IMG/VR virus record: IMGVR_UViG_3300031965_000003
Coordinates: 69,350 to 95,009 of that record
Strand: one strand, 5' to 3'
DNA from: a virus
DNA: 25,660 nucleotides
The notes under the pieces are model-generated. The model worked only from the letters and a program-made list of their open reading frames with translations. It had not been told where the DNA came from and searched no databases. Each line of letters starts with the position of its first letter. Position 1 is the stretch's first letter. Positions 7,638 through 24,456 of the stretch are shown here, in pieces. Made by a program: the position numbers and the translations under genes.

Positions 7638-8170
7638 GGCACCTCTCCCTGACCGCCGTCATCGTAGCCGTTGCTACCGTTCACGGTCAAAGCCCCGTTG
7701 CCACCGATCACCGATGCAGGCAACGATAACCTACCAGCCGCCATCAAGGCCCCCATCAGCTGCGTGATCCGTTCGTAAACGTTATCGGTCATCTCTTCCT
7801 GCCGCTGCTGAAAGGTAAAGTTCTGCTGAACCGGCTGCAAGATATCTGGACGCTCTATGTAGCCACGGTCCTTGGCCTGAGTCTTTAGGTAAAAGCAGAT
7901 GGCCCAACCCTCTCCAGCTCTTATCTGCTTGGCTAACGCCTCCTCAGCCGTGTCTGTCAAGAACTCCTTCGCCTCCTTGGCCACCTCAGCTATCTTAGGG
8001 TTCCTGTTCATGGCGTCATAGACGGCTTTTGGCGTGCATCCCAACCGTCTAGCGGCAGAATAGATCCTGCCTTCTGACGCCTTCAGCGCCTTTATGAACT
8101 TAACGTCCCCGTACCTAGCGCCGTACTTGTATTTCTTGCCCTTAAGGGCTGGTGGCTTTTTTTTAACCAT
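7634..8170 (-). CDS. terS: Terminase small subunit (HTH)
   Basis: N-terminal HTH (IYSAARRLGCTPKAVY), AICFYLKTQAKDRGY motif typical of TerS-like proteins; ATGA overlap with TerL. Confidence 0.85.
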   Translation of the reverse strand: MVKKKPPALKGKKYKYGARYGDVKFIKALKASEGRIYSAARRLGCTPKAVYDAMNRNPKIAEVAKEAKEFLTDTAEEALAKQIRAGEGWAICFYLKTQAKDRGYIERPDILQPVQQNFTFQQRQEEMTDNVYERITQLMGALMAAGRLSLPASVIGGNGALTVNGSNGYDDGGQGEVP

Positions 8171-8502: not shown

Positions 8503-8736
8503 TTAACGACCATCATCGTCAAGATCACCCTTGACTTGATCCTCAGCGACTAGCTTCTTTACGCTAACCACGGCCTCTGCCTCGCCATGAGCAGCAGAGG
8601 CCTCGTCTCGTCGCCACCCCAAGCCTGGGTCTAAAAACTCTGCGTTGCACGCTGTGCATGTAGGGATGGTCTCATGAGCCTTGGCCACCTGCTCAAGCGG
8701 GCGGCCGCACGTTGGACAATAGGCTGGCATAGTCAA
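8503..8736 (-). CDS. Small zinc-ribbon protein
   Basis: CPTC...CTAC; AAGGAGG RBS upstream. Confidence 0.65.
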   Translation of the reverse strand: MTMPAYCPTCGRPLEQVAKAHETIPTCTACNAEFLDPGLGWRRDEASAAHGEAEAVVSVKKLVAEDQVKGDLDDDGR

Positions 8737-8755: not shown

Positions 8756-9763
8756 TTAGGCTAACACCTGTGGTTCATAGTAGATCAGCTGGCTGCCCTG
8801 GTGCTCAAACTCAAACGGCACCGGCACGCAATCAGGCAACGCCTCACAAACGGCTTGCTTTGATTCAGGCGGAGCCACTAACAACAGGCAACCTCCGCCA
8901 CCGGCTCCCAAGAGCTTGCCACCTTTTGCCCCAGCAGCCGCGGCCCGTCTAAAGCAATCCAGTGCGTGATCATTGTCCACCGCAAAAGACATGGCCCGCT
9001 TCAACGCCCAGCCCTCGCGCAGCAACCTGGCTAACTCCTCGTGGTCACCGGCTTCCAAGGCGTCCATCGTTGGAGCTACAAGGGCTTGCTGGTCGCGCAA
9101 TATAACATCGTGGGCAGGAAGCGGGCGGTTTTGCCACTTGGCGGCTTCTATCTCGCTAGCTTTACCATCACGGGTCTTGGTATAGAGCAAGAGTAGATGC
9201 TCCTGTAACTCTACCAACTTACCATTATGCAAAGGCAGCCGGGTGAGCGAATAGTCATGGCGCTCTGGACCGAACTTGACGTGATTTAAGCCTCCGTGGG
9301 CAGCCGCCACATGGTCCTGACAACCAGCCACTTCGCCAGTGAGGTCCTGATCAACGTGCATGGCGTGTTTAGCCAACTCTCTCGGCGACACAGCCAAACC
9401 ACGCAGGACATGCAGCCCGTGCAGCAAGCCTACGGTGAACGAGGCCGACGTGCCCATGCCCGATTGAGCAGGCAGATCCCCGTCGTGGTGGATCTGGATG
9501 GCTGGCTTATCGATGCCCATGAACTTCAGACACGACTTGATTGACGGGTGCTGGATGGCCTCTAGGTCATCGATCTTTTCAACGCAAGACCAGACGAACC
9601 GGCTCTTAAAGGGAAAGAACGGAGGTAGCTGTCGCAAGGTCAGATAGGAGTAACGGTTGATGGTAGCAGAAACAACGCTGCCGGGCTGCTCGGTAAACCA
9701 AGCCGCAAAATCCGTCCCGCCCCCGGCGAATGAGATGCGATATGGAGTTCGGACCATCAACAC
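8756..9763 (-). CDS. GHMP-family sugar kinase, HddA-like (D-glycero-alpha-D-manno-heptose-7-phosphate kinase-like)
   Basis: RTPYRISFAGGGTD, DLPAQSGMGTSAS (ATP-binding loop), GCQDH, GGKLLGAGGGG. Confidence 0.9.
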   Translation of the reverse strand: MLMVRTPYRISFAGGGTDFAAWFTEQPGSVVSATINRYSYLTLRQLPPFFPFKSRFVWSCVEKIDDLEAIQHPSIKSCLKFMGIDKPAIQIHHDGDLPAQSGMGTSASFTVGLLHGLHVLRGLAVSPRELAKHAMHVDQDLTGEVAGCQDHVAAAHGGLNHVKFGPERHDYSLTRLPLHNGKLVELQEHLLLLYTKTRDGKASEIEAAKWQNRPLPAHDVILRDQQALVAPTMDALEAGDHEELARLLREGWALKRAMSFAVDNDHALDCFRRAAAAGAKGGKLLGAGGGGCLLLVAPPESKQAVCEALPDCVPVPFEFEHQGSQLIYYEPQVLA

Positions 9764-9836
9764 CTAGTGCCAAGCCTCTTATAGCTGCCCTTGGTCTTAC
9801 CTTATAGGCTGTTTTAGCAAAAAAGTAAACCAGCTT

Positions 9837-10769
9837 CTAAAATAAACCGCGCCGGGCCGCCCAATCAAGAAGATACCTGGTCGGGTCAGCAAAATAATGC
9901 ATGATGCAGTCCTCAAAATACCTGCGAACCTGCCTGTTAAACCGTTCCTGTTCGTAGGCTGGCGAGTAACGCTCAAAGCACAACCTAAGCCAGTCGGCCA
10001 ACTCATCCAGGCTCTTGGTGGGCGAGGCCCACTCCATCGGGACCGTCGCGTCCGTCGTGTCATCCATCCCACACCAGTCGTTGTATGAGATGGCAAACGG
10101 CATCCGCCCCAACCCACAGGCCTCGTAGAACCTGACCGTCATCATGTTAGCCGTCCCGCCAGGGCACAACGGCCAGGACCACTCCAACAGCCCAGCCTCA
10201 TAGCTCTGAACCACCGGCTGGTCAGCGCTGGTTTGAGCGTTCCAACCCTCGGTCCACTCCCACCGGTACGGCACGCCGGACACCTCTAGCGCCTCTTTCA
10301 CCTTTTCACGCAGACCGTGAGGATCGCGCTGCCCCTTGAAAAAATAGCCGGTCTTTTGCGGTGGCACGTAGGTGACACCCTTGCCGCGCCTGATCAGCGC
10401 CATCAAGAACCTCGAACAGGCCGGGCGCACCATGACGTTCCAGCCTGAACGGTGGGTGAGCAGGGCATTCATGGCCGACAAGATACACGGTTGCACCAAA
10501 TCGGGGATCTCAAATGAGTGGTCGCCCTCAAGATCAAACACGTGCCTGGCTTCATTGCCCTTGAAGAACTGAAACCGATTAGGGTGCAACAGCCAACGGG
10601 TTGCCTTGTTGTACTGGCCGCCGTAGAACAGCTCAGCGTCCTCTGGTCCAACCAACTCACACCATCGTTCGACCCCCGGCCTACAAAACGGGATGCAGTT
10701 CGGGTAGCCGTCACGGGTGTAGATCTCCTCAAGAGCGTGCTCGTAGATATAGATCTTTACCTTTCTCAT
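9837..10769 (-). CDS. Exostosin-like (GT47-like) glycosyltransferase
   Basis: N-terminal KIYIY...PEDAELF; C-terminal FFKGQ...LREKV...YEAGL...LCPGG...RFYEACGLGRMP pattern. Confidence 0.65.
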   Translation of the reverse strand: MRKVKIYIYEHALEEIYTRDGYPNCIPFCRPGVERWCELVGPEDAELFYGGQYNKATRWLLHPNRFQFFKGNEARHVFDLEGDHSFEIPDLVQPCILSAMNALLTHRSGWNVMVRPACSRFLMALIRRGKGVTYVPPQKTGYFFKGQRDPHGLREKVKEALEVSGVPYRWEWTEGWNAQTSADQPVVQSYEAGLLEWSWPLCPGGTANMMTVRFYEACGLGRMPFAISYNDWCGMDDTTDATVPMEWASPTKSLDELADWLRLCFERYSPAYEQERFNRQVRRYFEDCIMHYFADPTRYLLDWAARRGLF

Positions 10770-10796
10770 AAAGTTTTATTGCTATCTTTTCACCGT

Positions 10797-10817
10797 AGCT
10801 ATCACACCGTGATAGCT
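10797..10817. promoter_or_regulatory. Perfect 9-bp inverted repeat AGCTATCAC-ACC-GTGATAGCT upstream of the GT47-like gene
   Basis: Directly visible palindrome about 28 nt upstream of the ATG at 10769. Confidence 0.45.
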
Positions 10818-10846
10818 CGAAGCTGCACGGTATGACACCTAGCTGC

Positions 10847-10939
10847 CTACTTGGGAGTAAATCCGTTGTCGGTAGCCCACGCCTCCAAGATAGCGTCGGG
10901 AAACACGTCCTCTGGGTTTAAGTTCTTTATCTCAGTCAT
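10847..10939 (-). CDS. Small 30-aa hypothetical peptide
   Basis: Manual translation MTEIKNLNPEDVFPDAILEAWATDNGFTPK; fills the gap between neighbouring genes. Confidence 0.35.
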   Translation of the reverse strand: MTEIKNLNPEDVFPDAILEAWATDNGFTPK

Positions 10940-10954
10940 GACCTTATAATATTC

Positions 10955-11197
10955 CTACTTGATCTTGCTTGGAAAGCCACCGCTGTGCTCCTTTGTGCTT
11001 TTTGCCAAAGCTGGCTTGCACGCCTCAAGTTCCCCCTCATCAAGCCATAAACCGTCTGGCAGCTTGCCATCCTTATCAACAGTTGGAGCGATCCAATATC
11101 TGTTACACCCATTAAGGTGTTCAGCCCGTGATGTGGCTATGCCCATAAACCCGCTAATCGTACTGATTACCTTTGTCCCTAACTTGATCTTAAACAT
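10955..11197 (-). CDS. Small phage hypothetical protein (SH3-like beta fold)
   Basis: KLG.KV...ISGF.GIAT.R.EHLNGC.RY.I.P...KDG......WLDE..L pattern, common in phage ORFs; AAGGAAG RBS. Confidence 0.75.
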   Translation of the reverse strand: MFKIKLGTKVISTISGFMGIATSRAEHLNGCNRYWIAPTVDKDGKLPDGLWLDEGELEACKPALAKSTKEHSGGFPSKIK

Positions 11198-11247
11198 GTT
11201 TTATCTTCCTTTCGTAAAAATAAGCTCCATCATTTATCTATCTAGCC

Positions 11248-11376
11248 CTAACTTTCTGCTACAAGCTTAACATTACGCGACAACCGCAACGTCCACCGCC
11301 TCACCTGCTCGCGTCGTATCACACGACTGACGATGTCCTCGATCATGGATTCGTATGTGGTCGGTTGGTCAGGCAT
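11248..11376 (-). CDS. Small 42-aa hypothetical peptide
   Basis: Manual translation MPDQPTTYESMIEDIVSRVIRREQVRRWTLRLSRNVKLVAES; tiles the gap. Confidence 0.35.
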   Translation of the reverse strand: MPDQPTTYESMIEDIVSRVIRREQVRRWTLRLSRNVKLVAES

Positions 11377-11381
11377 GACGT

Positions 11382-11639
11382 TTATCTGCCGCTCCTGATT
11401 GCCTCGGCGATAACTTCACAATTCGTGAAGCCGATATTCCCAAGGTAGCTCTTCGCCTTTTCCGCACAGCGCTCCCGCTCCTCGCGCAACATTACGGCAA
11501 TCGGCGGCACCCATCTACGAAAGTAACACTGCTCATATGTGGTCATTTCGCTAATCGACTTGTCGATAGGATAGTCCGGTGTTATCACAAGCCGCACCAA
11601 AGTTTCTGCCCGAACGGTCGCCCAGTCAGGTGTGTTCAT
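11382..11639 (-). CDS. Phage hypothetical protein
   Basis: C-terminal EERERCA...IAEAIR pattern typical of small phage proteins; ATGA overlap. Confidence 0.65.
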   Translation of the reverse strand: MNTPDWATVRAETLVRLVITPDYPIDKSISEMTTYEQCYFRRWVPPIAVMLREERERCAEKAKSYLGNIGFTNCEVIAEAIRSGR

Positions 11640-11860
11640 CTCGATTCCCCTAACGGAGAAATTCTCAGAAAGCTGCGACCGCCGTTGACGAGGGAGTAGT
11701 GATAGTCTGATTCACAACTGAACCAGCCTCCCCATGGGAATCCTAATCCACCGCAGACGGCACATCTGTTTTTATCGACCGCGTAGTCATATCTTGCAGC
11801 GACTTCGACAAATCGGCCTGTCAATCCCGGTATTTCCACAATCTCAGCGGGTTCACTCAT
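11636..11860 (-). CDS. Small Cys/His zinc-binding hypothetical protein (start revised to ATG at 11860)
   Basis: CAVCGG...CESDYH; the longer track start overlaps the upstream gene. Confidence 0.5.
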   Translation of the reverse strand: MSEPAEIVEIPGLTGRFVEVAARYDYAVDKNRCAVCGGLGFPWGGWFSCESDYHYSLVNGGRSFLRISPLGESR

Positions 11861-11883
11861 CGTTTCTCTTATCAATTCTCTGC

Positions 11884-12075
11884 TCACAACTCCCAACCTC
11901 GCTTCCTTGCCTGAATAACCGCCCATGTGCTTGTTGGAATCGCTTTTCCCTCTTCCACCAACCAAGCAACTTGATCATCAAAAGCGAACTTTTGAATCAA
12001 TCCCATATTCATCGTTGCCTTAATTAAAGCAGCCAGAAGAGTTGGATCTTCTCCATAGGTAAAAAAAGGTTTCAT
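11884..12075 (-). CDS. Hypothetical protein
   Basis: 63 aa, co-oriented, tiles the region. Confidence 0.45.
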   Translation of the reverse strand: MKPFFTYGEDPTLLAALIKATMNMGLIQKFAFDDQVAWLVEEGKAIPTSTWAVIQARKRGWEL

Positions 12076-12083
12076 GAGGGTCC

Positions 12084-12341
12084 CTATGGCTTAATCTCCC
12101 AATTCCAACCAGATGTAGAGATCAAAGGTGAGACATAGGGCGTTTTAAACGGAATGGCACGCTTACCATCCGGCAACCTAATTTCTTCAATATCATCAGG
12201 CTGCTGGCCCGATACTGATGAAACAAATTCGAGATACACATCTATCCACGTTTTTACTTGAATGTCAGGTATCTGTTCGCCGTTTTCGTCCAAGGCAGCG
12301 ACATTACCGTTTGTAAAAAAGAACAGGCTTTTCACTTTCAT
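12084..12341 (-). CDS. Phage hypothetical protein
   Basis: 85 aa; GGAGGT RBS. Confidence 0.65.
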   Translation of the reverse strand: MKVKSLFFFTNGNVAALDENGEQIPDIQVKTWIDVYLEFVSSVSGQQPDDIEEIRLPDGKRAIPFKTPYVSPLISTSGWNWEIKP

Positions 12342-12443
12342 GGCTTACCTCCAACGCATCATCAATATGATAAAAACATAACTAGAAGTCGCAAAGCTGC
12401 TGAGCTAAATTTTTCTCGGTGCCGCAGATTCTACAAGTCTGCA

Positions 12444-12749
12444 TTACTTCTCTCCCCCAAAATAATCCCGTCGATCACAAACGTATTCATCCTTCACTTC
12501 ATCGTAACGCTCTGTAAATTCGATTGTGTAAATGGAAGTCCCAACGTTGTATAAATCTAAATATCCAAGCTTGCGCCTGTAAATCTCAATAGTATAACTC
12601 TCGCTGCCAATGTCATCACATGGTACAGAGTGCGGGTTATAACAGTCAGCCAACGCCTGTAAACAATCGTCCAACGTGGCGCAAACACCGATCGGCCAAT
12701 ACTGCTCATCGCTTGTTGCATCAACGATCTCATAAACGTGATCCATCAT
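12444..12749 (-). CDS. Acidic hypothetical protein
   Basis: 101 aa; ATGA-coupled to a 30-codon ORF at 12746..12838. Confidence 0.6.
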   Translation of the reverse strand: MMDHVYEIVDATSDEQYWPIGVCATLDDCLQALADCYNPHSVPCDDIGSESYTIEIYRRKLGYLDLYNVGTSIYTIEFTERYDEVKDEYVCDRRDYFGGEK

Positions 12750-12848
12750 TTCACCCTCAGCGTCACATGAGCTTCTTCCACTTGCTGATCAACTCGCTCA
12801 TGCACAATGAACAGAGACGGACTAACAAGCCGCCTCATGCTTAAACGT

Positions 12849-13709
12849 CTATGACCATGCTCCCCGTCCTATGGGCGTCACAATGCTCTCCAACCCTGCA
12901 TTGATTGCATTGATCCGTGCTAAGTACAGCTGATAATTCTCATCCGATGTTCGCGTGTATGGTTTGCCACGCTTCGGGATCGCCTTCAACGACTCTTGAG
13001 TGCCTAACTTATAAAGCAGGTACCTCACGTTCAACACCCAGCGCCACCCAAGAGCATTCGCCCGAACAGCTAAATCAATGTCGTTGATGCCCCTACCACC
13101 GTCATACTGCTGGTCCCAACCATTAAGGGTCTTTAACAACACCAGTGGGATAGAGTCACCAATAAAATAAATCACGTGCCCCGGTATTTCCCACAGCCCA
13201 AATTCTATCTCCTGCCCGAATAGCCGCCCTTTACGCTCCTGATACTCAGGCGTGTGCTTGTCAAAATACTCTTTGGCAAACACAGCGTTAAACTCCCGCT
13301 CAAAGACCGTCCAACGTTGATCGCTGTCAGTGTGAAGCGGAGGCGGCGCGTAACGGTCCAAATAATGTGTCATGCCGCAGCCCAACCGCTCGTACCAGCG
13401 CCAATGGGTGTCTAAATATTCTGGATACACCCAACAATAGTCCGTGAGATAAGTCACCAGCTCGCCAGCGCAGTATGTAGCCCCAACGTTCAACGCCCGC
13501 GTGTTATCGTAAAAATCATCTACCGAGGGAGCCGGGTAATGCCGTATCGGCAAGTCTACCTTAGCCAACAAGTCTTTTCGGTCAGCATAAAACTCGTCAA
13601 TGACGATCAACTCCCAATCGGTAACAGGCATGGTCTGCTGCAGAAACGCGTTCACCATCACGTCCAAACCACCAAGACGCGCTGTCACTATCACGTTAGA
13701 TATCTTCAC
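12849..13709 (-). CDS. GT2-like (GT-A fold) glycosyltransferase
   Basis: ISNVIVT...QQT.....WELIVIDE; RALNVG.....GELV.YLTD; NGWDQQYDGGRGINDIDLAVRA (GGFDE...ED.DL..R-type motif). Confidence 0.85.
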   Translation of the reverse strand: MKISNVIVTARLGGLDVMVNAFLQQTMPVTDWELIVIDEFYADRKDLLAKVDLPIRHYPAPSVDDFYDNTRALNVGATYCAGELVTYLTDYCWVYPEYLDTHWRWYERLGCGMTHYLDRYAPPPLHTDSDQRWTVFEREFNAVFAKEYFDKHTPEYQERKGRLFGQEIEFGLWEIPGHVIYFIGDSIPLVLLKTLNGWDQQYDGGRGINDIDLAVRANALGWRWVLNVRYLLYKLGTQESLKAIPKRGKPYTRTSDENYQLYLARINAINAGLESIVTPIGRGAWS

Positions 13710-13747
13710 AACCGCTCTTTCTTACACGGTGCAGTCAGAGCCTTGAT

Positions 13748-13942
13748 TTAACCATCGCTCATCAGTCTCCACTTCTCAGTTGTCCAATGGCTGCACAGGT
13801 CATCGGCGTTCTTTCTGGTCATAACTGGTTCAAATTGACACCATCCCATTGAGCCGTCGCGGGTCCAGCCATTCACACACCAAATCCCATAATCCGGCTT
13901 GAAATATCGACACGTCAAACAGCAAACTTCGGGCTTAGTCAT
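13748..13942 (-). CDS. Small Cys-rich phage protein
   Basis: CLTCRYF...GWC...P......DDLCSHW four-Cys pattern. Confidence 0.65.
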   Translation of the reverse strand: MTKPEVCCLTCRYFKPDYGIWCVNGWTRDGSMGWCQFEPVMTRKNADDLCSHWTTEKWRLMSDG

Positions 13943-14234
13943 CGCTCAACTCCCTTTGCACTTCGGCACGCCAATCGTCATCGGTTCTCGAATGCCATTC
14001 GCTGTTTTCTGATTCTACACAATCCCATTTAAGACCTAGATATATTAAACCATCATAGACTCGCTGCAATCGACATTCCCAATGGTCCACCTCAAACTTC
14101 GTTTTTCGTCTCATCGCTTCAGCTTGAATAAAAGCGTCACGCAATACCTGAAGTGTGCATAACGCCGGATCTGTCAACAGGCACTTGTGCAGCTTGGACA
14201 GCCGCCACGCTTCTTTAACCTTTGGATCAATCAT
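13935..14234 (-). CDS. Hypothetical protein
   Basis: 99 aa, GAGG-rich RBS, overlaps the downstream start. Confidence 0.55.
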   Translation of the reverse strand: MIDPKVKEAWRLSKLHKCLLTDPALCTLQVLRDAFIQAEAMRRKTKFEVDHWECRLQRVYDGLIYLGLKWDCVESENSEWHSRTDDDWRAEVQRELSDD

Positions 14235-14295
14235 CCCTCACCCCTCGCTCCAGGTAAATTGTCGAGCGGCCTTACAAATCGTATAACACGTTAAT

Positions 14296-14799
14296 TTAAT
14301 TTTGGGCATCACACACTGCACTAAGCGCTGCCAAGCAAATTGCATGGGGAGCGGTAGGTGCCCACACCTGAATAAACTTATAATCCTCACGCCAAGGGGC
14401 ATTATCGTCACCATGTGTCATATCACAATACCAACGTTCTAGATCATCGCTTGATAATTTAGAAGAAAGAGATATAGATACGTCAAAATCGTAACTTGAC
14501 ATTTTCTCTACGACTTCCCACGCTGCGGTTATATCTGTAGAATACTCAGGGCAAGCATCATGATAAGCAATTTCATTATCATCTGGACGACGAACCGTGA
14601 TACCTGGACGAATGATAGAATACGACTCCCTCCACCCTGCTATTTTTCCCGGCGTAAAATATTCATCCTGTTTCGGTTCTACCCAGGAGTTCAACGCTTT
14701 CTCAGTTTCATAATTCGGCTTAAATCTACAACCCCTCGCGACTTCCAGCCCCATCACCTTCTCCGCAATTAAAGCGTCAAGCTCGTGTCCGGCTTCCAT
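14296..14799 (-). CDS. Phage ABA-sandwich (BC1872-like) domain protein
   Basis: ELDALIAEKVMG...PEYSTDITAAWEVVEKM...APTAPHAICLAAL. Confidence 0.85.
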   Translation of the reverse strand: MEAGHELDALIAEKVMGLEVARGCRFKPNYETEKALNSWVEPKQDEYFTPGKIAGWRESYSIIRPGITVRRPDDNEIAYHDACPEYSTDITAAWEVVEKMSSYDFDVSISLSSKLSSDDLERWYCDMTHGDDNAPWREDYKFIQVWAPTAPHAICLAALSAVCDAQN

Positions 14800-14813
14800 G
14801 TTTTTAGATCCTG

Positions 14814-16319
14814 CTAAAAATCAGATTTTGGATGGTTCATGACCGGACTTAATTTAATCCTGTGAATCCATTCCGCGTACACCAGCTTGATCAACCGAAA
14901 CAACTGTAAGATAAACCCAACAATACCATGCTTTTTCCACACCGGCCCCCAGCGCCACGGTTTGCCGTATATCTTTACAAAACCCCAATTCTGTAGCTCT
15001 ATTAGATCCTGCGCTTTAAGGTCGCCAACGTTGGTAACCGCATTGCCATAACGTAGGTATTCGCTGAAGTCCTCCGACAACAACTCTAAGCCGTGCTCGC
15101 CGCCAACTGCCATGCGATGAAACTCAGTGCCTGGATACGGCACGGCGATGGCCAGATTGGCCTGCTTGATATCACGCTGGTTAGATACCCACTGGATGGT
15201 GTTCCTGACTGTCTGTCGAGTCTCGCCCGGCAGCCCAATCATCAGGCTGTTCATAGCCTCTACTCCATGCTCAAAGCAAATCTTGTTGGCTCTAGGATAA
15301 TCGTCAATCGGAACCTTCTTCCCCATCGTGACACGCATCACCGGATCTATCGTCTCCAACCCAAAGCTCAGTCGTATCAATCCACTTTTGGCCAATCGCT
15401 TGACCAGCGGCTCGGTAACGGTGTTAGCTCTCGTGCTCGATTCAAACGTAAATCTCAACCCCTCGGCGTCCATGCGGTCAACGATCTCCAAGATGTGTTC
15501 GGGCCAAAACAGCAGCACGTCATCAACTATGTAAAGGTGAGTGATAAAAGGAAACCGTGTTGCAACGTCCTTCATCTCCTCAACCACCCGCTTAGGCGAC
15601 TTCATAATGACGCGCCGTGTCTGGATGGCGTCGCTGGCACAAAAAATACATGACCAATAGCAGCCACGCTGCGTGGCCAATGACGTAAAATTATTTCTTC
15701 CACGCGGCGTGCCAAGCCTATATTTCTCCATAGGCAATAGATGTCGTGCGGGTAACGGCAGCCTATCCAACGGATAGTTGTGCCCCAAGTCACTCTTCTT
15801 CATAGCGTCAAGCGTAATCCAGCGCGGCACAGCCTCTTTGATCTCGTTATTAACTCGCCGCATGACTCCCGATGGCTCATTGCCAGAAAATCCGCTACCA
15901 TACCACTGTAAAAAATCTTTTAAACTATCCTCCGCTTCACCTAAAAACCCATAATCAAATTGTGGCAAGAACGCTTTCTGTTTAACAATGGTTACATGCG
16001 GCCCGCCGACAATAATCGGTATATTTTTATTTTTTCTCTTGATTACGCTGGCAGCGTCGCACGACAAATGAAAAAACGGTGAGTAGGCAGAAAAACCAAC
16101 CACGTCAGGTTTCTGTTCTAAAATCTTATCTGCCAACTGCTCGTTGTCCCATCCGTTGGCCTCTGCATCGATGATTACAGCCTCATGCCCGGCTTCTTCT
16201 ACGACTGCTCCAAGCTGCGCCAGGTTTAATGGCGGCCAGGTAGAATTTCGCTTGGCAAAGTGGCCAAAGAGACCATACTCTCCAGTCCACCGAGGATAGG
16301 CAAACAACACCTTTATCAT
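14814..16319 (-). CDS. Cobalamin-binding radical SAM enzyme (class B methyltransferase-like)
   Basis: PPLNLAQL, KPDVVGFS, IIVGGPH, GEAE (B12 domain); RGCYWSCIFC (CxxxCxxC); FGLET, MIGLPGET, PYPGTEF. Confidence 0.93.
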   Translation of the reverse strand: MIKVLFAYPRWTGEYGLFGHFAKRNSTWPPLNLAQLGAVVEEAGHEAVIIDAEANGWDNEQLADKILEQKPDVVGFSAYSPFFHLSCDAASVIKRKNKNIPIIVGGPHVTIVKQKAFLPQFDYGFLGEAEDSLKDFLQWYGSGFSGNEPSGVMRRVNNEIKEAVPRWITLDAMKKSDLGHNYPLDRLPLPARHLLPMEKYRLGTPRGRNNFTSLATQRGCYWSCIFCASDAIQTRRVIMKSPKRVVEEMKDVATRFPFITHLYIVDDVLLFWPEHILEIVDRMDAEGLRFTFESSTRANTVTEPLVKRLAKSGLIRLSFGLETIDPVMRVTMGKKVPIDDYPRANKICFEHGVEAMNSLMIGLPGETRQTVRNTIQWVSNQRDIKQANLAIAVPYPGTEFHRMAVGGEHGLELLSEDFSEYLRYGNAVTNVGDLKAQDLIELQNWGFVKIYGKPWRWGPVWKKHGIVGFILQLFRLIKLVYAEWIHRIKLSPVMNHPKSDF

Positions 16320-17770: not shown

Positions 17771-18531
17771 TCGACCACCTTCGCCCAAATCTGACCAAAC
17801 CGAGTGTAACCCGGTAACATCTCCTTGACCGCCCTGACTACGCCAAAGTGCATTTTACCGTCGATGTAATAATCCAACTCTGGCTCTCCACATAGCCGCT
17901 CCCACTCCTTTGACCCCATCTCCACGTCACCCGTGAAAGCATGACCGCATATCACACCACCAGACCGAACCTTTGGCAGCCACGCCAGAATGTCTCTCTT
18001 GATCCCCGAATACCTGTGGTCGCCGCCTATATAAACGTAATCAATCGACCGATCTGGCAACAGCGCTGCTGGCTCCCATGATGTACCTATGACCACTGAC
18101 ACATAATTCAATGCATCCGCAATCTCTATATTCTTCAACAGCTGCAGCAACACTGTGCCAGCTGGAAACTGCCCCCACTGATAGTCAGCTATCTGACTGT
18201 TGACTCCACCTTTAAACCAATCAACACAATAAAAATGACCGCCATTAGCAGCAAAGACTGACCACACGCACGATGCAGTCCATCCCGTGTAGCATCCCGT
18301 ATCGAACCCAATCATACCAGGGCGTGCTACATTTTCCGCCAAGCTATGAAGGAAGTAGGCAACTGACACCTCAAGCCCACCGCCCAAAGAATCCCACTCA
18401 TTGCCCTCCTCCAACCATTGATGCTTCGCCATCTGCTCACAACGATGGTCGCTATTGTCATAAATATTCTGATCACACAAGGAACACTTAACATACGTGA
18501 CCCCGTTATCATCTTTACACTGAATAAACAC
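17767..18531 (-). CDS. Class I SAM-dependent methyltransferase-like protein (Methyltransf_24 type) with N-terminal Cys cluster
   Basis: DTGCYTGWTA, YCVDWFKG, IDYVYIGGDHRY..IKRDI.AWLPKVRSGGVICGH, GVVRAVKE. Confidence 0.8.
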   Translation of the reverse strand: MFIQCKDDNGVTYVKCSLCDQNIYDNSDHRCEQMAKHQWLEEGNEWDSLGGGLEVSVAYFLHSLAENVARPGMIGFDTGCYTGWTASCVWSVFAANGGHFYCVDWFKGGVNSQIADYQWGQFPAGTVLLQLLKNIEIADALNYVSVVIGTSWEPAALLPDRSIDYVYIGGDHRYSGIKRDILAWLPKVRSGGVICGHAFTGDVEMGSKEWERLCGEPELDYYIDGKMHFGVVRAVKEMLPGYTRFGQIWAKVVE

Positions 18532-18534
18532 CGC

Positions 18535-20337
18535 CTACTCGCTCCTTCTGTCTTGCCAACCGGGTACAGGATCAATGATCATGTTTCCGAGAAATTCATT
18601 TTCCGGCAGCGATGGCCACTGCTCCTCTATACCAGCATCCCAACGCATCATGCGCGGCTCGTACTGATGAAAGTCACCGCAGTCAACATCACACACAACC
18701 GCCTCTCGACTATTCAGCACCTCCGAAATAACTCGATCAGCGTCCCTTGTCTTGCTCACTGTTCTGGTTGATAACCCATATGCCCGTGCGATCTCAAGAA
18801 AGTTGGGCACGCTGTAACCCTTGGGGCCGCAAGCCTCGCGCTTGCCGCCAAAGTTCGTCTCTTGATACGCAACCGTGATCCCATAGGTATGGTTGTTAAG
18901 AACAAAAATCTTAAGCGGCACGTTGTAGTGCTTAATCGTCTGAAGCTCTTGGATGTTCATCTGAAAACCGCCGTCACCTATCACACACACGACACGCCTA
19001 GCAGGATCGGCGAACCACGCGCCCATCGCTCCGCACATCGAGAAGCCCATCGGAGAGTTGCCGTTGTTGGTCAAGTACCGCTGGCCAAACTTAGTCTTGA
19101 AGGCATGATTGCACACCACGATGTTACCGCCGCAATCAGCCACGAGCACGTCGCTAGATGCCATTAACTCAGACAGTTGGCGCACGAAAGCGTATGGATG
19201 AATGCTTGATTGTAAGAACTGCTGAGCCTGCACCGGATCGTAACGATCACGCCACTCAACAACTTGCCGCCGCCACGGGTCAATATCTAACCGCGGGTCT
19301 TGACCACCAACAACTATATCAAGCAGGCACTTTAAGAATATATAAGCGTCACACCGCGCACAGACATCAAACGGCAACTGTTGCAGGTAGCGCTGAAGCA
19401 ACGCAGGGTCAACGTCAATAACGTACTTTTTTGCCCCACGAGCAAATGATTGAATGTTGCCTCCAGTGATCCTGCCAGACAACCGGCACCCGATGGCAAC
19501 TAATAGATCGCTGTTCTGCACAGCAAAGTTACGCCCCGCTCCACCATATGTACCTATCCTACCGCCATAAAAATCAAGATCACTCGTGATAACGTCTAGC
19601 GCGTTCCATGTCGGGAAGCATGGCACGCCCAGCCGCTGGCTCAACTCATTAATAACCGATACCGCACCAGCTATACGCACTCCTCCCCCAACCAAGATCA
19701 CTGGGCGCGAAGCCCGCTGTAAATCGTCTAGCAGTCTAAACGCAACTCGCCGCACTTCAAGCATGTCATAAAAAGCAGCCTCAACACTTGCATCAAACCC
19801 GTGTAACTTACCAGGGTCAATCTCAGCTTTTTGAACGTCCATCGGCAGATCAATCAGCACCGGCCCAGGCCTCTCATTACGACACAGCCAATACGCTTTT
19901 TCCATCTCATAGCGAATAGCCCTTGGGTCGGTCACCATAACCGCGTACTTAGTTATGGGCTTGACGATAGAGACAATATCAGTTTCTTGAAAACCAACTT
20001 GACGCACCGAAGGATCTGGCCGTAAGAATCGGGAATTGATTTGCCCCGTGATAAAGATGCAAGGCACCGAATCGTAAAAACAATTGCCTATCGGCGTCAC
20101 GAGATTCATGCCACCTGGCCCACTGGTAACTATCACTGCACCTGGCTTGCCACTGATCTTGGCGTAACACTCCGCAGCAAATCCGCCGCCTTGCTCGTGG
20201 ATGACTGAAATGTATTCCGTCTGTTTAGTACGGGTAAATGCATCGCATAAATCTCCCATCGCCGACCCATACACCATGCACACCTTATCGATGCCATTCC
20301 GCCCCAAAAAATCAACAGCGTAATCAGCCAGCTTCAT
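18535..20337 (-). CDS. ThDP-dependent acetolactate-synthase-fold enzyme, probably a YerE-like sugar-branching carboligase (start revised to ATG at 20337)
   Basis: HEQGGGFAAE, VTSGPGGMN, GFQETDIV, RPGPVLIDLPMDVQ, GDGGFQMNIQEL...LNNHTYG (GDG-x-NN). Sugar-pathway context and no ilvN/ilvC. Confidence 0.88.
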   Translation of the reverse strand: MKLADYAVDFLGRNGIDKVCMVYGSAMGDLCDAFTRTKQTEYISVIHEQGGGFAAECYAKISGKPGAVIVTSGPGGMNLVTPIGNCFYDSVPCIFITGQINSRFLRPDPSVRQVGFQETDIVSIVKPITKYAVMVTDPRAIRYEMEKAYWLCRNERPGPVLIDLPMDVQKAEIDPGKLHGFDASVEAAFYDMLEVRRVAFRLLDDLQRASRPVILVGGGVRIAGAVSVINELSQRLGVPCFPTWNALDVITSDLDFYGGRIGTYGGAGRNFAVQNSDLLVAIGCRLSGRITGGNIQSFARGAKKYVIDVDPALLQRYLQQLPFDVCARCDAYIFLKCLLDIVVGGQDPRLDIDPWRRQVVEWRDRYDPVQAQQFLQSSIHPYAFVRQLSELMASSDVLVADCGGNIVVCNHAFKTKFGQRYLTNNGNSPMGFSMCGAMGAWFADPARRVVCVIGDGGFQMNIQELQTIKHYNVPLKIFVLNNHTYGITVAYQETNFGGKREACGPKGYSVPNFLEIARAYGLSTRTVSKTRDADRVISEVLNSREAVVCDVDCGDFHQYEPRMMRWDAGIEEQWPSLPENEFLGNMIIDPVPGWQDRRSE

Positions 20338-21545
20338 AGTATGGCCCCGTCCCTCCTGTGGTCGCGCACGAAGCAAATCAATCGCTTGATACCTTCTGTG
20401 ACCTCATCAACGCTGCCTCCACAAGCTAGCCTAACATACTGATCCCAACGCACCCCGCCAAAAGCCTTGCCAGGAGTCACAGCCACGTAGGCATCCTCAA
20501 GCGCAAGCTTAGCGAACTCCACGCTGTTTAACCCGGTAGACCCGATATTCAAGAACAGATAATAAGCCGCCATCGGCATATCGCACCTCAAGACACGGCT
20601 ATCGTTAACCAAGGCCGCATATTGACGCATGAGGGGCGCATACCGCACACGCAATGACATGCAATGGTTATCAATCTCATCAAGCGCAGCCAGAACGCCT
20701 GCCTGAGTAAATGAGGACAGACAACTTATTGAAGTCGATATCGACAACACGACTTTTTCGATGAACTGCGAATCAGCTATCACGTACCCGACGCGATAAC
20801 CCGGCACCCCAAAGAGCTTTGACAAGCTGCCTATACGCACCACTTTCTCCTGGAGCCTAGGGATAAAATAACATTCAGGGAGCTCCATAACGTATCTCAA
20901 TCTTTCATAAGTCTCGTCAATAAGCAGCCAGATATCATGCTCCTCACACTTGTCGATCAAATACGACATCACCGCCAGCGGGTAAACCGCTCCGGTAGGG
21001 TTGTTCGCGCTATTGACGATGATGGCCCCGCGGCATCCACGCAATCGCGTAGGAGATTTGCTGTTTATGCAATATACCGCATGGTCAACGTCTTCTCTCG
21101 TCAGCTCCCAATTAATTTTTTCGTTGAGCGGCAATACATAAACATTAGAGCAAAGATGGGCAGACGCAGCCATGTACGTTGGAAACGCTGGCGAGAACAA
21201 TACAACCGGCGTGGTCTGGTCACTGGCTATGGTTAAAAACTGACTGATGGCGAAATTTGCCGGAGTGATCGCTACATTAGCCGCTGTCAACTCTCCGCAC
21301 CCAAACTTCTCTGCAATCTTCTGCCTCAATGCAGTGAGCCCACCTGCCAGCGTGTAACCGTGATAACCACTCTTAAGCATCCTTAAGCTGCTCTCTATAA
21401 GCCGCAAGGGCGGTGGTACACAAACGGCTCCAAGCTCCAAGTGACAAATCCTATGGCCTCTGCTCTCAAGCTCAGTTGCCTGATCAGCTATCTTAAACAT
21501 CTCCTGGCCAATCAAGGTGTTAGCACGATTAGAGAATTGAACCAT
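20334..21545 (-). CDS. PLP-dependent aminotransferase, class I/II
   Basis: NSANNPTG, IDETY, SLSKLFGVPGYRVGY (catalytic Lys), VTPGKAFG, YVRL. Confidence 0.92.
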   Translation of the reverse strand: MVQFSNRANTLIGQEMFKIADQATELESRGHRICHLELGAVCVPPPLRLIESSLRMLKSGYHGYTLAGGLTALRQKIAEKFGCGELTAANVAITPANFAISQFLTIASDQTTPVVLFSPAFPTYMAASAHLCSNVYVLPLNEKINWELTREDVDHAVYCINSKSPTRLRGCRGAIIVNSANNPTGAVYPLAVMSYLIDKCEEHDIWLLIDETYERLRYVMELPECYFIPRLQEKVVRIGSLSKLFGVPGYRVGYVIADSQFIEKVVLSISTSISCLSSFTQAGVLAALDEIDNHCMSLRVRYAPLMRQYAALVNDSRVLRCDMPMAAYYLFLNIGSTGLNSVEFAKLALEDAYVAVTPGKAFGGVRWDQYVRLACGGSVDEVTEGIKRLICFVRDHRRDGAIL

Positions 21546-21551
21546 ACTACG

Positions 21552-22544
21552 TTACCTCGACACCCCAACTATCTTAGCAATACCATCCCAAAACACCCTA
21601 CCGTCAAACGTCTCAACCGCCTTCCGATGACCAGCCCTCGCAATATCTTCAGCCTCTTTAGCACCAACCCCCATGTAGTATCTCAACCGTTCTATCAAGT
21701 TAGTGTCCTGAAATTCTAGCTGCCCGTTGTTGTAATGAAATGGCTCAGTAAATGGCACGTACTCCGCCATGGTACTAAATAATCGGCTGGTCTCGATGCT
21801 CTCAGACTCAAGCAACATGGCTCCGCACATCGTAGCTTCTGCTGTCCTACCCGTAAGATGCTCAAACGTACACGCAGAGGTGAAGTTCAGCGTGATCTTA
21901 GACCGTCTGAGCCAACCCACATAATCATAGATAGACCCACGACTGCTAGGATGCGCCCCACCTAACACCTTAACCTCTATACCGCTGCCTGTCACCCATG
22001 CCAGATTTAATGCGCGATCAATCCTCCCCAGAACAGACCCGACAAACGTTAACGGCAGATCACGCTCAATCTTTTCGTCACAATTAAAAAGCGTCGGATC
22101 TCTAGGCTCCGGCAGCCAATAAGTCTTGTCAGGGTGCTTAGTAAACTTTTTCCAATGCTCGTAGGTATCAAAAAACACGTTGGCCGTAGTACCAGCTGCA
22201 TACATATCAGCCCAAGTTACCACGTTGGGAGCAGACTCCAACCACAACGAGACTACTGGTATACCCATACGGTCTCTGATAACTTGATAGCACTCAGGGG
22301 GAATATTATTTTTTTCCAGCGCCAACACTGGCGTGGTCAATACGATATCAGGACCAAACGTATGACACGCCGTCAATAAGGCTTTAGAACTCTCTTGTAC
22401 ACTAGTGAATTGGTTGTAAAAAAACAGAAACTCTCTGTGTCCTAGAGCGCGCAATGACCCTATCAAAGAATAAAGTGCAAGTGTTGGCTCATGATCGCCA
22501 GGGAACCGGCACATCGTGCTTTCTAAAGATAATAACACCCTCAT
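21552..22544 (-). CDS. CgeB-like (GT-B fold) glycosyltransferase
   Basis: DPTLF, LTFVGS...R, SKITLNF, GRTAEATMCGAMLLE, EDIARAGHRK. Confidence 0.78.
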   Translation of the reverse strand: MRVLLSLESTMCRFPGDHEPTLALYSLIGSLRALGHREFLFFYNQFTSVQESSKALLTACHTFGPDIVLTTPVLALEKNNIPPECYQVIRDRMGIPVVSLWLESAPNVVTWADMYAAGTTANVFFDTYEHWKKFTKHPDKTYWLPEPRDPTLFNCDEKIERDLPLTFVGSVLGRIDRALNLAWVTGSGIEVKVLGGAHPSSRGSIYDYVGWLRRSKITLNFTSACTFEHLTGRTAEATMCGAMLLESESIETSRLFSTMAEYVPFTEPFHYNNGQLEFQDTNLIERLRYYMGVGAKEAEDIARAGHRKAVETFDGRVFWDGIAKIVGVSR

Positions 22545-22810
22545 GCGTCATGCTCGCTCACTATTGGTTTTTCGATCAAGCCCCAATCGATACCTAATCG
22601 CGAGTCGTCCCACTTCACATAAACCCGCTGCTTAGTATAATAACCGCTCCATCTGTACCAAAACACCGCAACATCGGACCGTACTGAATGCCCGTTCACT
22701 ACGTACCAACCAACTACATAATAATAATAATTTTCATTAAATGGACTTAGTGGATCCATAAGGTTCATAAACCCATTTGGATCAGCAATTGACATATCGT
22801 TCTTTCCCAT
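22541..22810 (-). pseudogene. Truncated or chimeric RmlC-like (NDP-4-keto-6-deoxyhexose 3,5-epimerase) C-terminal fragment
   Basis: NGHSVRSDVAVFWYRWSGYY...KWDDSRLGIDWG...PIVSEHD resembles the RmlC C-terminus; the N-terminal half with the RGLH motif is absent. Confidence 0.65.
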
Positions 22811-22811
22811 T

Positions 22812-24098
22812 TTATCGTACCGCCTTTCGCAAAACTCCCGCTATGTATTCCATACACTCACGGTTGAGCAAAGGATGCACCCCAACAAAAAATCCGTCTT
22901 TCATGATCTTATCGGTGTTCTTTAAATCGCCGTGAACACGATGAGAAATATTCCTAAAGGCAGGCTGGCGAAGTAGGTTACCACCAAAGATTGGCCTAGT
23001 CTCGATCTTTGCAGCCTCCAACTCAGCAATCACCCTTGCGCGGTCAACCCCATCGCGACAGATCAACGGATACGCATACGGCGACGGAACCGCTGTTTTT
23101 AAAATACGCGGCAAGATAAAATAATCTTCAAGATCGCCATGACACAGCCGGTCAAGCAGATAAAAATTTTCACGCCGCCTACTAATGATAAAATCTAGCT
23201 TATCAAACTGAGCACACAGCACGGCAGCTTGCATGTCAGTAGCTTTCAGGTTGTAGCCGATATAAGTATAGATGTATTTGTGGTCTGTCCCAAGCGGCAA
23301 ACTGGGACGAAAATCCCAATCAAACCTCATACCGCAAGTATTCGACAGACCGGGCTTACAGTAACAGGCCCGTCCCCACTCGCTCAGTGACCGCGCCGCC
23401 ACAGTCAACTTCGAAGAATTGATGATACAAGTCCCACCTTCGCCTGCTGTCGTGTGATGCGCTGGAAAGTGAGACAAGCTAGAAGCATGACCAAACGTAC
23501 CAACCAACTTACCTTTGATGGTGGCCGCTAAAGCATCGCAACCGTCTTCAAAAAACCACAGGTTGTTCTCATCCGCTATGTTGCGCACCCACCATGCGTC
23601 AAAAGGTAAACCTAACGGGTGCGGCAACATGATTGCCTGCACGTCATCATCACAATCAGCCACGTCATCTATCGTCTCAAGACTAGGATTGTAAGTGTCC
23701 AGCTCAACATCAACAAACACCGGGCGCAAACCCAATTGAATGATCGGAGCTAATGTCGTCGGGAAACCCAAGGCTGGTACTACAACCTCAAAGCCAGCCT
23801 TCAACTGTTGATCCTCAGAAGCGCACGCCGCCGCCAGCATCAACAGGTTAGCTGATGACCCCGAATTGACAAGCACCGCAGACCTGCACCCAAATAATTT
23901 GATGATCTTGCTCTCAAACTCCTCTGTCCAACGCCCAGCCGTTAAGTGTCCCGACAACGCACAATCGACCAAGTTGACCATCTCATGATAATCGAACACC
24001 TCCGTGCTGTACGTGATCCTATCCGCGCCAGGCCGAGGAGAACACTTGGATTGCACGTACTTCTGCACGCTTTCTAGAATGCTCTCACGGGTGATCAT
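22812..24098 (-). CDS. rfbH: CDP-4-keto-6-deoxyglucose 3-dehydrase-like (E1, DdhC/RfbH), PMP and [2Fe-2S] dependent
   Basis: VNSGSSANLL, FPTTLAPIIQ, EDGCDAL, SHFPAHHTTAGEGG (His at the usual Lys position), WGRACYCKPGLSNTC (CxCx7C), DHKY, GYNLKATDMQAA, ETRPIFGGNLLRQP. Confidence 0.9.
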   Translation of the reverse strand: MITRESILESVQKYVQSKCSPRPGADRITYSTEVFDYHEMVNLVDCALSGHLTAGRWTEEFESKIIKLFGCRSAVLVNSGSSANLLMLAAACASEDQQLKAGFEVVVPALGFPTTLAPIIQLGLRPVFVDVELDTYNPSLETIDDVADCDDDVQAIMLPHPLGLPFDAWWVRNIADENNLWFFEDGCDALAATIKGKLVGTFGHASSLSHFPAHHTTAGEGGTCIINSSKLTVAARSLSEWGRACYCKPGLSNTCGMRFDWDFRPSLPLGTDHKYIYTYIGYNLKATDMQAAVLCAQFDKLDFIISRRRENFYLLDRLCHGDLEDYFILPRILKTAVPSPYAYPLICRDGVDRARVIAELEAAKIETRPIFGGNLLRQPAFRNISHRVHGDLKNTDKIMKDGFFVGVHPLLNRECMEYIAGVLRKAVR

Positions 24099-24108
24099 AA
24101 GTAATGCT

Positions 24109-24456
24109 CTAATCTTCTACGTGTCGTAACATCTCACCCTGCCAATCGTACTCGCGCTGATGCACCACTTTGTATGTTCCAGTAGGCAGCTCATGCGCAC
24201 AATGACCGTCTTGCTGCACCCTGGCAGTAGGCGTCGATCCATGATTCAACGACACGAATCGTGACTCGACCTTAAAATACAAATCGTTGTTGGCATCCCT
24301 GAAGTATCTAACGCGCCCGCCAACCAACTGATGCTTATGGCCGGTGGTTTCGCCATAAGCCAACACGCCATCGTGTGCAACTTCTTTTGCTCCTTTCGGG
24401 ATACTACTTTCGATCACGCCCACGTCTCCCTGTCGCCATGCCTTCTGTATCGCCAT
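24109..24456 (-). CDS. Small conserved His-rich protein (RQGDV...LAYGETTGHxH...HQREY family), partner of DUF6745 (start revised to ATG at 24456)
   Basis: AAGGAGG RBS before MAIQKAWRQGDV; family motifs present; 115 aa. Confidence 0.8.
   Translation of the reverse strand: MAIQKAWRQGDVGVIESSIPKGAKEVAHDGVLAYGETTGHKHQLVGGRVRYFRDANNDLYFKVESRFVSLNHGSTPTARVQQDGHCAHELPTGTYKVVHQREYDWQGEMLRHVED

Follow-up and report, generated by a model that had tools for sequence, protein, structure and literature searches.

The 25,660-nucleotide stretch analysed here (hereafter the window) corresponds to bases 69350-95009 of the 95,009-bp IMG/VR virus record IMGVR_UViG_3300031965_000003, and raises the question of what a long string of sugar-pathway genes, among them a 3-dehydrase of the RfbH/E1 type and a putative thiamine diphosphate (ThDP) carboligase, is doing immediately ahead of the packaging genes of a virus. 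Coordinates are those of the window unless specified as belonging to the whole record (contig), both systems being kept apart. Considering together gene order, catalytic motifs and the related cassettes of other viruses, the string is probably a resident module of a tailed phage that would make a carbon-branched, methylated deoxysugar and transfer it inside the infected cell.

The window comprises ~34 genes, all of them co-directional on the minus strand, and combined open reading frame (ORF) and profile searches recovered in place, and on that strand, the genes named in the original prediction. The upstream part of the string is formed by RfbH (22812-24098) and by an 89-residue RmlC-like cupin remnant (22541-22810; PF00908, 32 bits), followed by a CgeB-like glycosyltransferase of the Glyco_trans_1_2 family and GT-B fold (21552-22544; PF13524, E 1.6e-11), a class I/II aspartate aminotransferase (AspAT)-like pyridoxal phosphate (PLP) enzyme (20334-21545; PF00155, E 3.5e-35), the putative YerE-like ThDP carboligase (18535-20337; TPP_enzyme_N/M/C; 600 residues from the ATG at 20337), a class I S-adenosylmethionine (SAM) methyltransferase of the Methyltransf_24 family (17767-18531; PF13578, E 1.5e-14), and two B12 radical SAM enzymes, A (16316-17770) and B (14814-16319), both with PF02310 and PF04055 domains. 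The four ATGA overlaps proposed to couple these genes (16316-19, 17767-70, 20334-37 and 22541-44) were read directly and are all real, thereby fixing the starts of the ThDP gene at 20337 and of radical SAM A at 17770, and a fifth one joins the small and large terminase genes. Catalytic decay, a possibility raised along with the pathway, was looked for as well; motifs are intact in every cassette enzyme, the RmlC remnant being the sole decayed gene.

That the pathway is embedded in a phage is borne out by phage genes that both flank and interrupt the cassette, and by its occurrence in independently assembled virus contigs. Throughout its 95 kb the contig is phage DNA read in one direction, with 118 of the 129 ORFs on a single strand, and it includes modules for head, tail and replication. 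Downstream of the sugar genes come the small terminase subunit terS (7634-8170; phrog_4044, E 4e-6; HTH_8), the large subunit TerL (6159-7637; Terminase_6C/6N) and a Mu-type portal (3757-5883; Portal_Mu, E 2e-43) with an Intein_splicing domain at residues 179-364. Past the portal, the contig encodes a protein for head morphogenesis, a protease for maturation and the major head protein (contig 63882-64916; phrog_1005, E 1.6e-64); further on come tail proteins, DNA methylases, a Cas4-like nuclease and an SNF2 helicase. A 12-nt tandem array with the consensus ACCGCCGAGTCA is found at both contig ends in the same orientation and reading frame, covering the first ~190 bases and the last ~490 (window 25167-25660), with 41.2 copies by Tandem Repeats Finder at the window end and at least 13 at the other. 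Thus, the assembly broke within one repeat, which makes a closed (circular or circularly permuted), nearly complete genome probable; the available estimate of 80% completeness is therefore probably too low, and absences on the contig carry weight. Regarding lifestyle, no full-length integrase was found on the contig, which holds only the C-terminal part of a tyrosine recombinase (contig 3788-4048; Phage_integrase profile positions 83-168; open frame of 133 residues). This fragment looks like a remnant and argues against a functional temperate lifestyle.

The cassette is common to four or five other independent virus contigs. L096, a 95.5-kb independent assembly, displays the order sugar cassette, TerL (38% identical), portal, and carries orthologues of the CgeB-like (47%), GT2-like (39%) and GT47-like (37%) glycosyltransferases, of radical SAM A (45%) and B (69%, with an intein), and of the ThDP enzyme (61%) and the sugar kinase (45%). 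In the 7.4-kb fragment L075, kinase, TerL (66%) and portal (62%) follow the order of the window, with the kinase directly upstream of the terminase; kinase orthologues in these two contigs share 45-51% identity with that of the window. A 102-kb phage (with L097) and L188 keep the core amid genes for helicase, DNA methylase and RlaP, which themselves share 42-61% identity with their counterparts on the contig studied; the former encodes a RXYLT1_C glycosyltransferase, a ThDP enzyme and a B12 radical SAM enzyme, and the latter, by homology, the GT2-like, GT47-like, ThDP and radical SAM A proteins. The closest ThDP relative (68%) lies in L189, where aminotransferase, ThDP and radical SAM A genes are ordered as in the window, and no bacterial protein exceeds that identity. 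In a quick maximum-likelihood search, the phage ThDP genes formed one clade (SH-like approximate likelihood ratio test, SH-aLRT, 98), whose sister group (fork support 94) is bacterial and contains Nitrospira; both lie within a 21-row clade (SH-aLRT 100). The shared cassette and this phage clade together indicate long retention in phages. A clade of ~95-100 kb phages thus keeps a branching module with B12 radical SAM tailoring and glycosyltransferases of its own, and the fact that it is kept between phages whose terminases are only 38% identical points to a selected phage function for an exotic sugar.

Beyond these close relatives, 71 IMG/VR loci with a ThDP relative were compared. A gene of the DegT/RfbH family is present in 64, a short-chain dehydrogenase/reductase (SDR) in 51 and a PanB gene in 43, and most of the loci show no relative of the B12 radical SAM enzymes of the window within ~10 kb. 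Among them are a GroEL-encoding phage (L099) and a prasinovirus-like contig (L098), whose ThDP genes are 31-35% identical to that of the window and fall in two other clades.

The predicted chemistry starts from RfbH, which passes the curated equivalog threshold of NF011936 (471.4 bits versus a cut-off of 423) and matches the E1 crystal structure 3BCX (E 7.5e-103). A PAHH motif aligns with His220 of 3BCX, and the equivalents of Cys193, Cys251, Cys253 and Cys261 are conserved (numbers counted from the alignment). In E1, this histidine stands in place of the PLP lysine, and the four cysteines bind the [2Fe-2S] cluster. These features assign the predicted protein to the pyridoxamine phosphate- and [2Fe-2S]-dependent NDP-4-keto-6-deoxyhexose 3-dehydrase type. 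As for the adjacent RmlC remnant, only its last ~50 residues match the family (PF00908 profile positions 108-161) while the first ~40 match nothing, and it is 45% identical to the C-terminus of a full 195-residue RmlC-like protein of L096. Once the contig is closed, the cluster reaches past the window to an SDR gene (contig 430-1509) two genes upstream of RfbH. The SDR displays a 33-residue N-terminal extension and the motifs SSSEIYG and YDESKR, with low and mixed NCBIfam scores. Such motifs resemble those of UDP-xylose synthase or ArnA-type enzymes, and the protein is kept here simply as an SDR, for which the roles of a 4,6-dehydratase, of a decarboxylase of the UDP-xylose synthase/ArnA kind and of the missing YerF-type reductase are all conceivable.

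Three genes downstream of the E1 gene in this tightly coupled string lies the ThDP enzyme. Its nearest solved structures are JanthE (8RPH; E 1.7e-86, 294 bits) and PpYerE (5AHK; 1.8e-79, 271 bits), two YerE-like lyases in which a 2-oxo acid, once decarboxylated, is coupled with a ketone (PMC12247030, PMC12188165). The GDG-x24-NN cofactor motif is intact, and the protein remains under every equivalog cut-off for acetohydroxyacid synthase (AHAS), with 379.6 bits versus 538 for TIGR00118. Plant and bacterial AHAS come only after JanthE and PpYerE in the structure search. It is thus probably a YerE-like carboligase, ketone-accepting enzymes being its nearest solved relatives. In bacteria, YerE, ErwE and related lyases branch a 4-keto-3,6-dideoxy sugar produced by E1/RfbH, and the gene for the donor 2-oxo acid adjoins that of the lyase (PMC9306805). 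The yersiniose-like logic of this locus, namely E1 followed by a YerE-like ThDP enzyme, is supported by both the E1 motifs and the nearest structures (PMC12247030).

The gene overlapping that of the ThDP enzyme, and hence translationally coupled to it, encodes the aminotransferase, whose NNPTG, DETY and SLSK motifs and carboxylate-binding Arg align with 2Z61 and 1O4S. Aminotransferase genes occupy this place in the window, L189, Nitrospira and P0003/P0014, while L096, L097, L188 and L002 carry PanB. The two never co-occur in the cassettes compared, and PanB was not found on the contig studied. The PanB of sister phages is bona fide (267 bits versus a cut-off of 207.55), and since it can only make a 2-oxo acid (ketopantoate), both proteins are read as donor suppliers. 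Supply of the 2-oxo acid by the aminotransferase is accordingly somewhat favoured over amination of the branch ketone. The conserved carboxylate-binding Arg was considered as a discriminator between these two roles and discarded, because the amino-donor half-reaction of an aminating enzyme needs that residue too.

Radical SAM enzymes A and B share ~24% identity with each other, present CxxxCxxC motifs at residues 208 and 220 behind an N-terminal B12-binding domain, and score far under every equivalog cut-off. Class B radical SAM enzymes usually C-methylate. Orthologues of A (43-55%) occur in L096, L097, L188, L189 and Nitrospira, and A lies beside the ThDP gene in every examined relative having sequence next to that gene; it therefore probably acts on the same intermediate as the lyase. 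For B, orthologues are found in L096 (69%, split by an intein) and in two genomes of Nitrospira, where they adjoin the ThDP gene and are 53-56% identical. The L096 gene (L096:3517-6195) encodes 892 residues including the intein (PF14890), and the copy of the window is intact and intein-free. Methyltransf_24 proteins are likewise present in the cassettes of L096, the 102-kb phage and L188, and appear fused to glycosyltransferases in the bacterial cluster.

At the downstream end of the cassette, the GHMP sugar kinase (8756-9763; GHMP_kinases_N/C) has the motifs PAQSGMGTSAS and GAGGGG, and its nearest structures are all of the HddA/WcbL type: 3K85, 4USM/4USK (WcbL) and 4N3O (HddA), with E values from 1e-30 to 7e-26. 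It stays well under the equivalog threshold of HddA, the D-glycero-D-manno-heptose 7-phosphate kinase (100 bits versus a cut-off of 600), and is thus described as HddA-like. These heptose-7-phosphate kinase structures, together with the additional HddC/mannose-1-phosphate guanylyltransferase-like, SDR and RmlC-like genes of L096, indicate that the scaffold may be a GDP-heptose rather than a CDP-glucose derivative.

Two further glycosyltransferases add to the CgeB-like one. Pfam searches gave no match for the GT2-like (12849-13709; GT-A fold) or the GT47-like ORF (9837-10769; Exostosin/RXYLT1_C-like, GT-B fold) themselves, their assignment resting on the ESM Atlas and on orthologues. The former reaches an ESM Atlas feature score of 0.98, template modelling (TM) scores of 0.66-0.73 to clusters of the GT2 family, the majority of which are 72-100% viral, and a weak EpsD N-terminal match, with orthologues at 37-39% in L096 and L188. 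The latter reaches TM scores of 0.87 to a viral cluster and of 0.73 to plant GT47 (Exostosin/RXYLT1_C), and matches to PF24785/PF03016 were obtained for its orthologues in L096, L188, the 102-kb phage and L002. Both families are mostly viral and neither derives from the Nitrospira cassette described below. Transmembrane segments are lacking throughout the cassette proteins, and a hydropathy scan of the 129 ORFs revealed no polytopic enzyme of the Wzx, Wzy, Gtr or Oac kind; transfer would therefore be cytoplasmic. Since the transferases are of viral type, the cassette heads the late module (the glycosyltransferases sit just upstream of the packaging and head genes) and mycobacteriophages and giant viruses offer a precedent, a phage protein, either of the virion or the neighbouring repeat protein, is preferred as the most likely acceptor, this being the least supported step of the scheme.

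That repeat protein carries a C-terminal DUF6745 domain (24476-25660; PF20530, E 2e-20) and spans the contig join, its N-terminal part of ~75 residues lying at contig 417-190, so that the gene is located between the SDR and RfbH genes. A pair of DUF6745 genes had been announced here; a single one was found, the neighbouring ORF encoding a 115-residue phrog_27831 protein. Ahead of the domain, the 12-nt array encodes S-A/T-V-x tetrapeptides with one serine each, at least 41 of them in the window and at least 54 in the joined gene; none of the examined sister cassettes has this protein. Gram-positive bacteria glycosylate their serine-rich repeat adhesins in the cytoplasm. By analogy, the DUF6745 protein might be a serine-repeat glycoprotein coated by the three transferases and forming a virion or cell-surface coat, a speculative proposal that is considered unlikely.

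Altogether, these enzymes would fit the following scheme. A nucleotide sugar, either made by the host or primed by the kinase, would be oxidised to a 4-keto sugar, possibly by the SDR encoded two genes upstream, and E1/RfbH would then remove the 3-hydroxyl. Decarboxylation of a 2-oxo acid by the YerE-like ThDP enzyme, with addition of the acyl group to the 4-keto carbon, would produce a tertiary-alcohol branch; the 2-oxo acid would be supplied from an amino acid by the coupled aminotransferase (by PanB in sister phages), with amination of the branch ketone being the less likely role. Tailoring with C- and O-methyl groups would fall to both B12 radical SAM enzymes and to the Methyltransf_24 protein, and the soluble CgeB-like, GT2-like and GT47-like transferases would finally put the sugar on a cytoplasmic acceptor.

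Several observations weigh against this reading. The 95-kb contig has no match to a nucleotidyltransferase (NTP_transferase), nor to an E3-type reductase (NAD_binding_1), leaving E1 without its usual partner; CDP-glucose 4,6-dehydratase is also absent, the sole SDR scoring just 27 bits on the CDP-glucose dehydratase model, and the operon contains no YerF-like reductase. Without nucleotidyltransferase and dehydratase the pathway cannot start alone, and the phage must take the nucleotide sugar, as well as the electrons for E1, from its host. The lead of YerE-like structures over the best AHAS in the PDB search is modest (294 versus 248 bits), and the ThDP tree was built without authentic YerE, ErwE or MygE sequences. 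The nearest solved structure of the radical SAM enzymes is the dehydratase AprD4 (6FD2, E 4e-22 for B) rather than a methylase, their roles being guessed from the enzyme class. Finally, the sequence itself gives no identity for the acceptor, and the bacterial counterpart of the cassette lies beside heptosyltransferase-type genes, pointing to lipopolysaccharide (LPS).

This last point favours a variant in which the pathway is the same and the host envelope is the target, the sugar being placed at the cytoplasmic face on lipid-linked O-antigen, LPS-core or capsule intermediates. The surface of the infected cell might then be altered, for instance blocking superinfection or keeping progeny from sticking to debris. 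Such a destination agrees with the closest bacterial cassette being a variable chromosomal glycan locus, with the Glyco_transf_9 (heptosyltransferase) genes that follow it in the one large genome read, with YerE-like enzymes being known from LPS sugars (PMC12247030), and with the usual task of soluble glycosyltransferases, which normally build lipid-linked units. Nonetheless, Gtr, Oac, Wzx, Wzy and an initiating transferase are all missing, the GT2-like and GT47-like proteins, which fall into mostly viral clusters, form no part of the host cassette, and without a full-length integrase on the contig classical lysogenic conversion is unlikely; the envelope, and with it the effects just mentioned, is held to be a serious but less likely destination. 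Decoration of the phage DNA, as a hypermodified base blocking restriction, is much less probable still. Phages that employ glycosyltransferases against host defences classically do so by glycosylating their DNA, and cassette genes of sister phages do interleave with helicase, DNA methylase, MazG and RlaP genes. On the contrary, a thymidylate-synthase-like hydroxymethylase is absent from the near-complete contig (no PF00303 match), the C5 and N6/N4 methylases encoded there act on ordinary bases, and searches of Pfam, PHROG and the ESM Atlas linked none of the three transferases to a family of DNA glucosyltransferases.

It could also be argued that the ThDP, aminotransferase and radical SAM genes are auxiliary genes for the supply of branched-chain amino acids or 2-oxo acids, given that the best NCBIfam names of the ThDP enzyme are acetolactate synthases, that the aminotransferase is AspAT-like, and that a prasinovirus gene has been read as serving valine, leucine and isoleucine synthesis (PMC5371798). 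This explanation is quite improbable: all AHAS cut-offs are missed, no Pfam match to the AHAS small-subunit, IlvC or IlvD families was obtained for any window ORF of at least 60 residues, the gene is coupled in one operon with E1, glycosyltransferase and methyltransferase genes, and a DegT/RfbH-family gene accompanies the ThDP gene in the 64 viral loci already mentioned. A misassembly that fused a host O-antigen island to phage DNA, or a prophage flank, would have in its favour the GC content of the cassette (0.42-0.52, slightly under the 0.54-0.58 of the terminase region) and the partial synteny with Nitrospira, but phage genes lie on both sides of the cassette and inside it, GC skew is continuous, and independent assemblies carry this cassette too, that of L096 likewise just before the terminase. 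In addition, identity to Nitrospira reaches only 38-62% and the phage ThDP genes form their own clade. A host flank or chimera is therefore so remote that it can be regarded as excluded for practical purposes, leaving a cassette that, judged by its sequence context, is resident in the phage lineage.

The preferred reading, a phage module modifying a phage protein, raises the question of where its core comes from. The best matches of the ThDP enzyme among species representatives are Nitrospira/Nitrospiraceae proteins at 60-61% identity, the next ones dropping to at most 42%; the one exception, a record titled 'Nitrosospira', groups with Nitrospira in the tree. A ThDP orthologue (60-62%) is present in 45 of 301 Nitrospiraceae genomes, at a variable surface-glycan locus of these nitrite oxidisers for which no product description was found. 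There, the order is DegT, SDR, GHMP kinase (38-41%), NTP transferase, aminotransferase (38-41%), radical SAM A (43%) and ThDP (60%), and in a 4.1-Mb genome the same set is followed by a giant methyltransferase/glycosyltransferase protein and then by Glyco_transf_9 genes. RfbH is at most 45% identical to any bacterial neighbour, has no counterpart in Nitrospira, and shares 27% identity with the Nitrospira DegT. From these comparisons, the phage core goes back to a copy of a variable bacterial cassette for surface glycans, since diverged, to which RfbH and viral-type transferases were added. The proposal of a non-host glycan thus holds in part: RfbH and the glycosyltransferases do not come from the Nitrospira cassette, but the core is syntenic with it at 38-62% identity, which makes a chemistry of the host type probable. 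The host is possibly Nitrospira, as suggested only by the nearest relatives of the cassette; a TerL-like match was obtained in 3 of the 301 Nitrospiraceae genomes, with 35-47% identity. If this is so, the module would take part in a phage-host glycan interaction in a key nitrifier.

Among characterised systems, the yersiniose A pathway (DdhA-D/E1-E3, YerE, YerF) and the erwiniose, caryophyllose and gastriose clusters (ErwE, MMAR_2332, MygE) share with the phage the E1 3-dehydrase. Just as in the phage, these clusters encode a ThDP lyase of acetolactate synthase (ALS) fold, which in them adds an acyl branch derived from a 2-oxo acid (PMC9306805, PMC12247030), and a glycosyltransferase gene is present both in yersiniose-type clusters and in the phage cassette. 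A donor-supply gene lies beside the lyase, an aldolase in Erw and, as proposed, an aminotransferase or PanB in phages. The phage genome differs from the yersiniose pathway in lacking cytidylyltransferase, CDP-glucose dehydratase, E3 and YerF, and in adding two B12 radical SAM enzymes, a Methyltransf_24 protein and an HddA-like kinase that lie outside that pathway as described (PMC12247030, PMC9306805). Unlike that of yersiniose, its acceptor is probably not LPS reached through Wzx/Wzy. In the Nitrospira cassette, kinase, aminotransferase, radical SAM A and ThDP genes are orthologous and syntenic with those of the phage, and radical SAM B occurs in some genomes; the phage differs in lacking the NTP transferase and the bacterial SDR, in having E1/RfbH in place of DegT, and in its added viral-type transferases.

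On the viral side, the glycosylation of mycobacteriophage virions and of chlorovirus, prasinovirus and mimivirus capsids or fibrils employs soluble virus-encoded transferases, in some cases together with sugar-nucleotide enzymes, that work in the cytoplasm and need no export machinery of the host (PMC5371798), as proposed for the phage. The combination of ThDP branching with B12 radical SAM chemistry was found in no characterised viral system, the glycan of the phage being here a prediction from its genes. That no characterised phage system has this enzyme combination, as stated in the original prediction, is consistent with a literature search in which neither a YerE-like nor a B12 radical SAM sugar cassette of a phage was found, and in which viruses are named as unexplored ground by a 2025 review of ThDP branching enzymes (PMC12247030); cassettes with ThDP, PanB and DegT genes are nonetheless common in uncultured viruses. 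No cultured relative was found either, since tblastn searches with the ThDP and PanB proteins against 50,697 phage records yielded only matches of ~30% identity, most of them in records resembling host contamination, plus the panB of one jumbo Microcystis phage. TerL is at most 43% identical to that of any cultured phage.

Outside phages, YerE-type branching is known only for the LPS sugars of bacteria, and related ThDP enzymes introduce branches into sugars of antibiotics. The module also offers a compact, expressible set (E1, ThDP lyase, aminotransferase and two B12 enzymes) for new tertiary-alcohol sugars. The L099 and L098 viral cassettes resemble that of the phage in having an ALS-fold ThDP enzyme within a glycosyltransferase-rich cluster, with PanB rather than an aminotransferase. 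Viral ThDP "acetolactate synthase" and PanB genes lie in sugar clusters, and their usual reading as amino-acid or vitamin genes may be wrong. For the prasinovirus ThDP gene, its position among sugar genes suggests a role in glycans rather than in amino acids. In the 159-kb contig L098, PanB, ThDP, SDR, DegT, SDR, GT2 and DegT genes form one block (9129-16540), and its prasinovirus-like genes comprise those for a chlorophyll a/b-binding protein, TFIIS, Asn synthase and a Cu/Zn superoxide dismutase.

The remaining genes of the region are small. The 115-residue protein (24109-24456; PHROG E 1e-9), encoded 10 nt upstream of RfbH, was considered as a small cupin replacing the broken RmlC, an idea abandoned since its AlphaFold model (pLDDT, the model's own per-residue confidence, 78.6) gave no match to the PDB with Foldseek. 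The model is all-beta, none of 13 homologues has a Pfam domain, and the homologue P0139 is found in phage-like contigs where sugar genes are not nearby. Between radical SAM B and the GT2-like gene lies a Phage_ABA_S protein (14296-14799; PF18066, E 4e-15; phrog_8017) that may belong to the sugar module; an ABA-sandwich gene is also located between the ThDP and radical SAM genes of L188 (12678-13055), a divergent phage. Seven small ORFs (13935-14234, 13748-13942, 12444-12749, 12084-12341, 11636-11965, 11382-11639 and 10955-11197) interleave with the GT2-like gene; they have neither Pfam matches nor transmembrane segments, and only the last one matches a PHROG family (phrog_16275, E 2e-18). Downstream of the kinase there is a small zinc-ribbon ORF with two CxxC pairs (8503-8736; PF13453, E 2e-4).

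Elsewhere on the contig, a ParB-like protein (contig 25223-27054) adjoins a phosphoadenosine phosphosulfate-reductase/DUF3440 protein, a pair common in phages. An RlaP-family nucleotidyltransferase (contig 4706-6763) contains a LAGLIDADG-like insert, reaching 685 residues in comparison with the 512 of its counterpart in the 102-kb sister phage, and this insert may be a second intein or a homing-endonuclease insertion.

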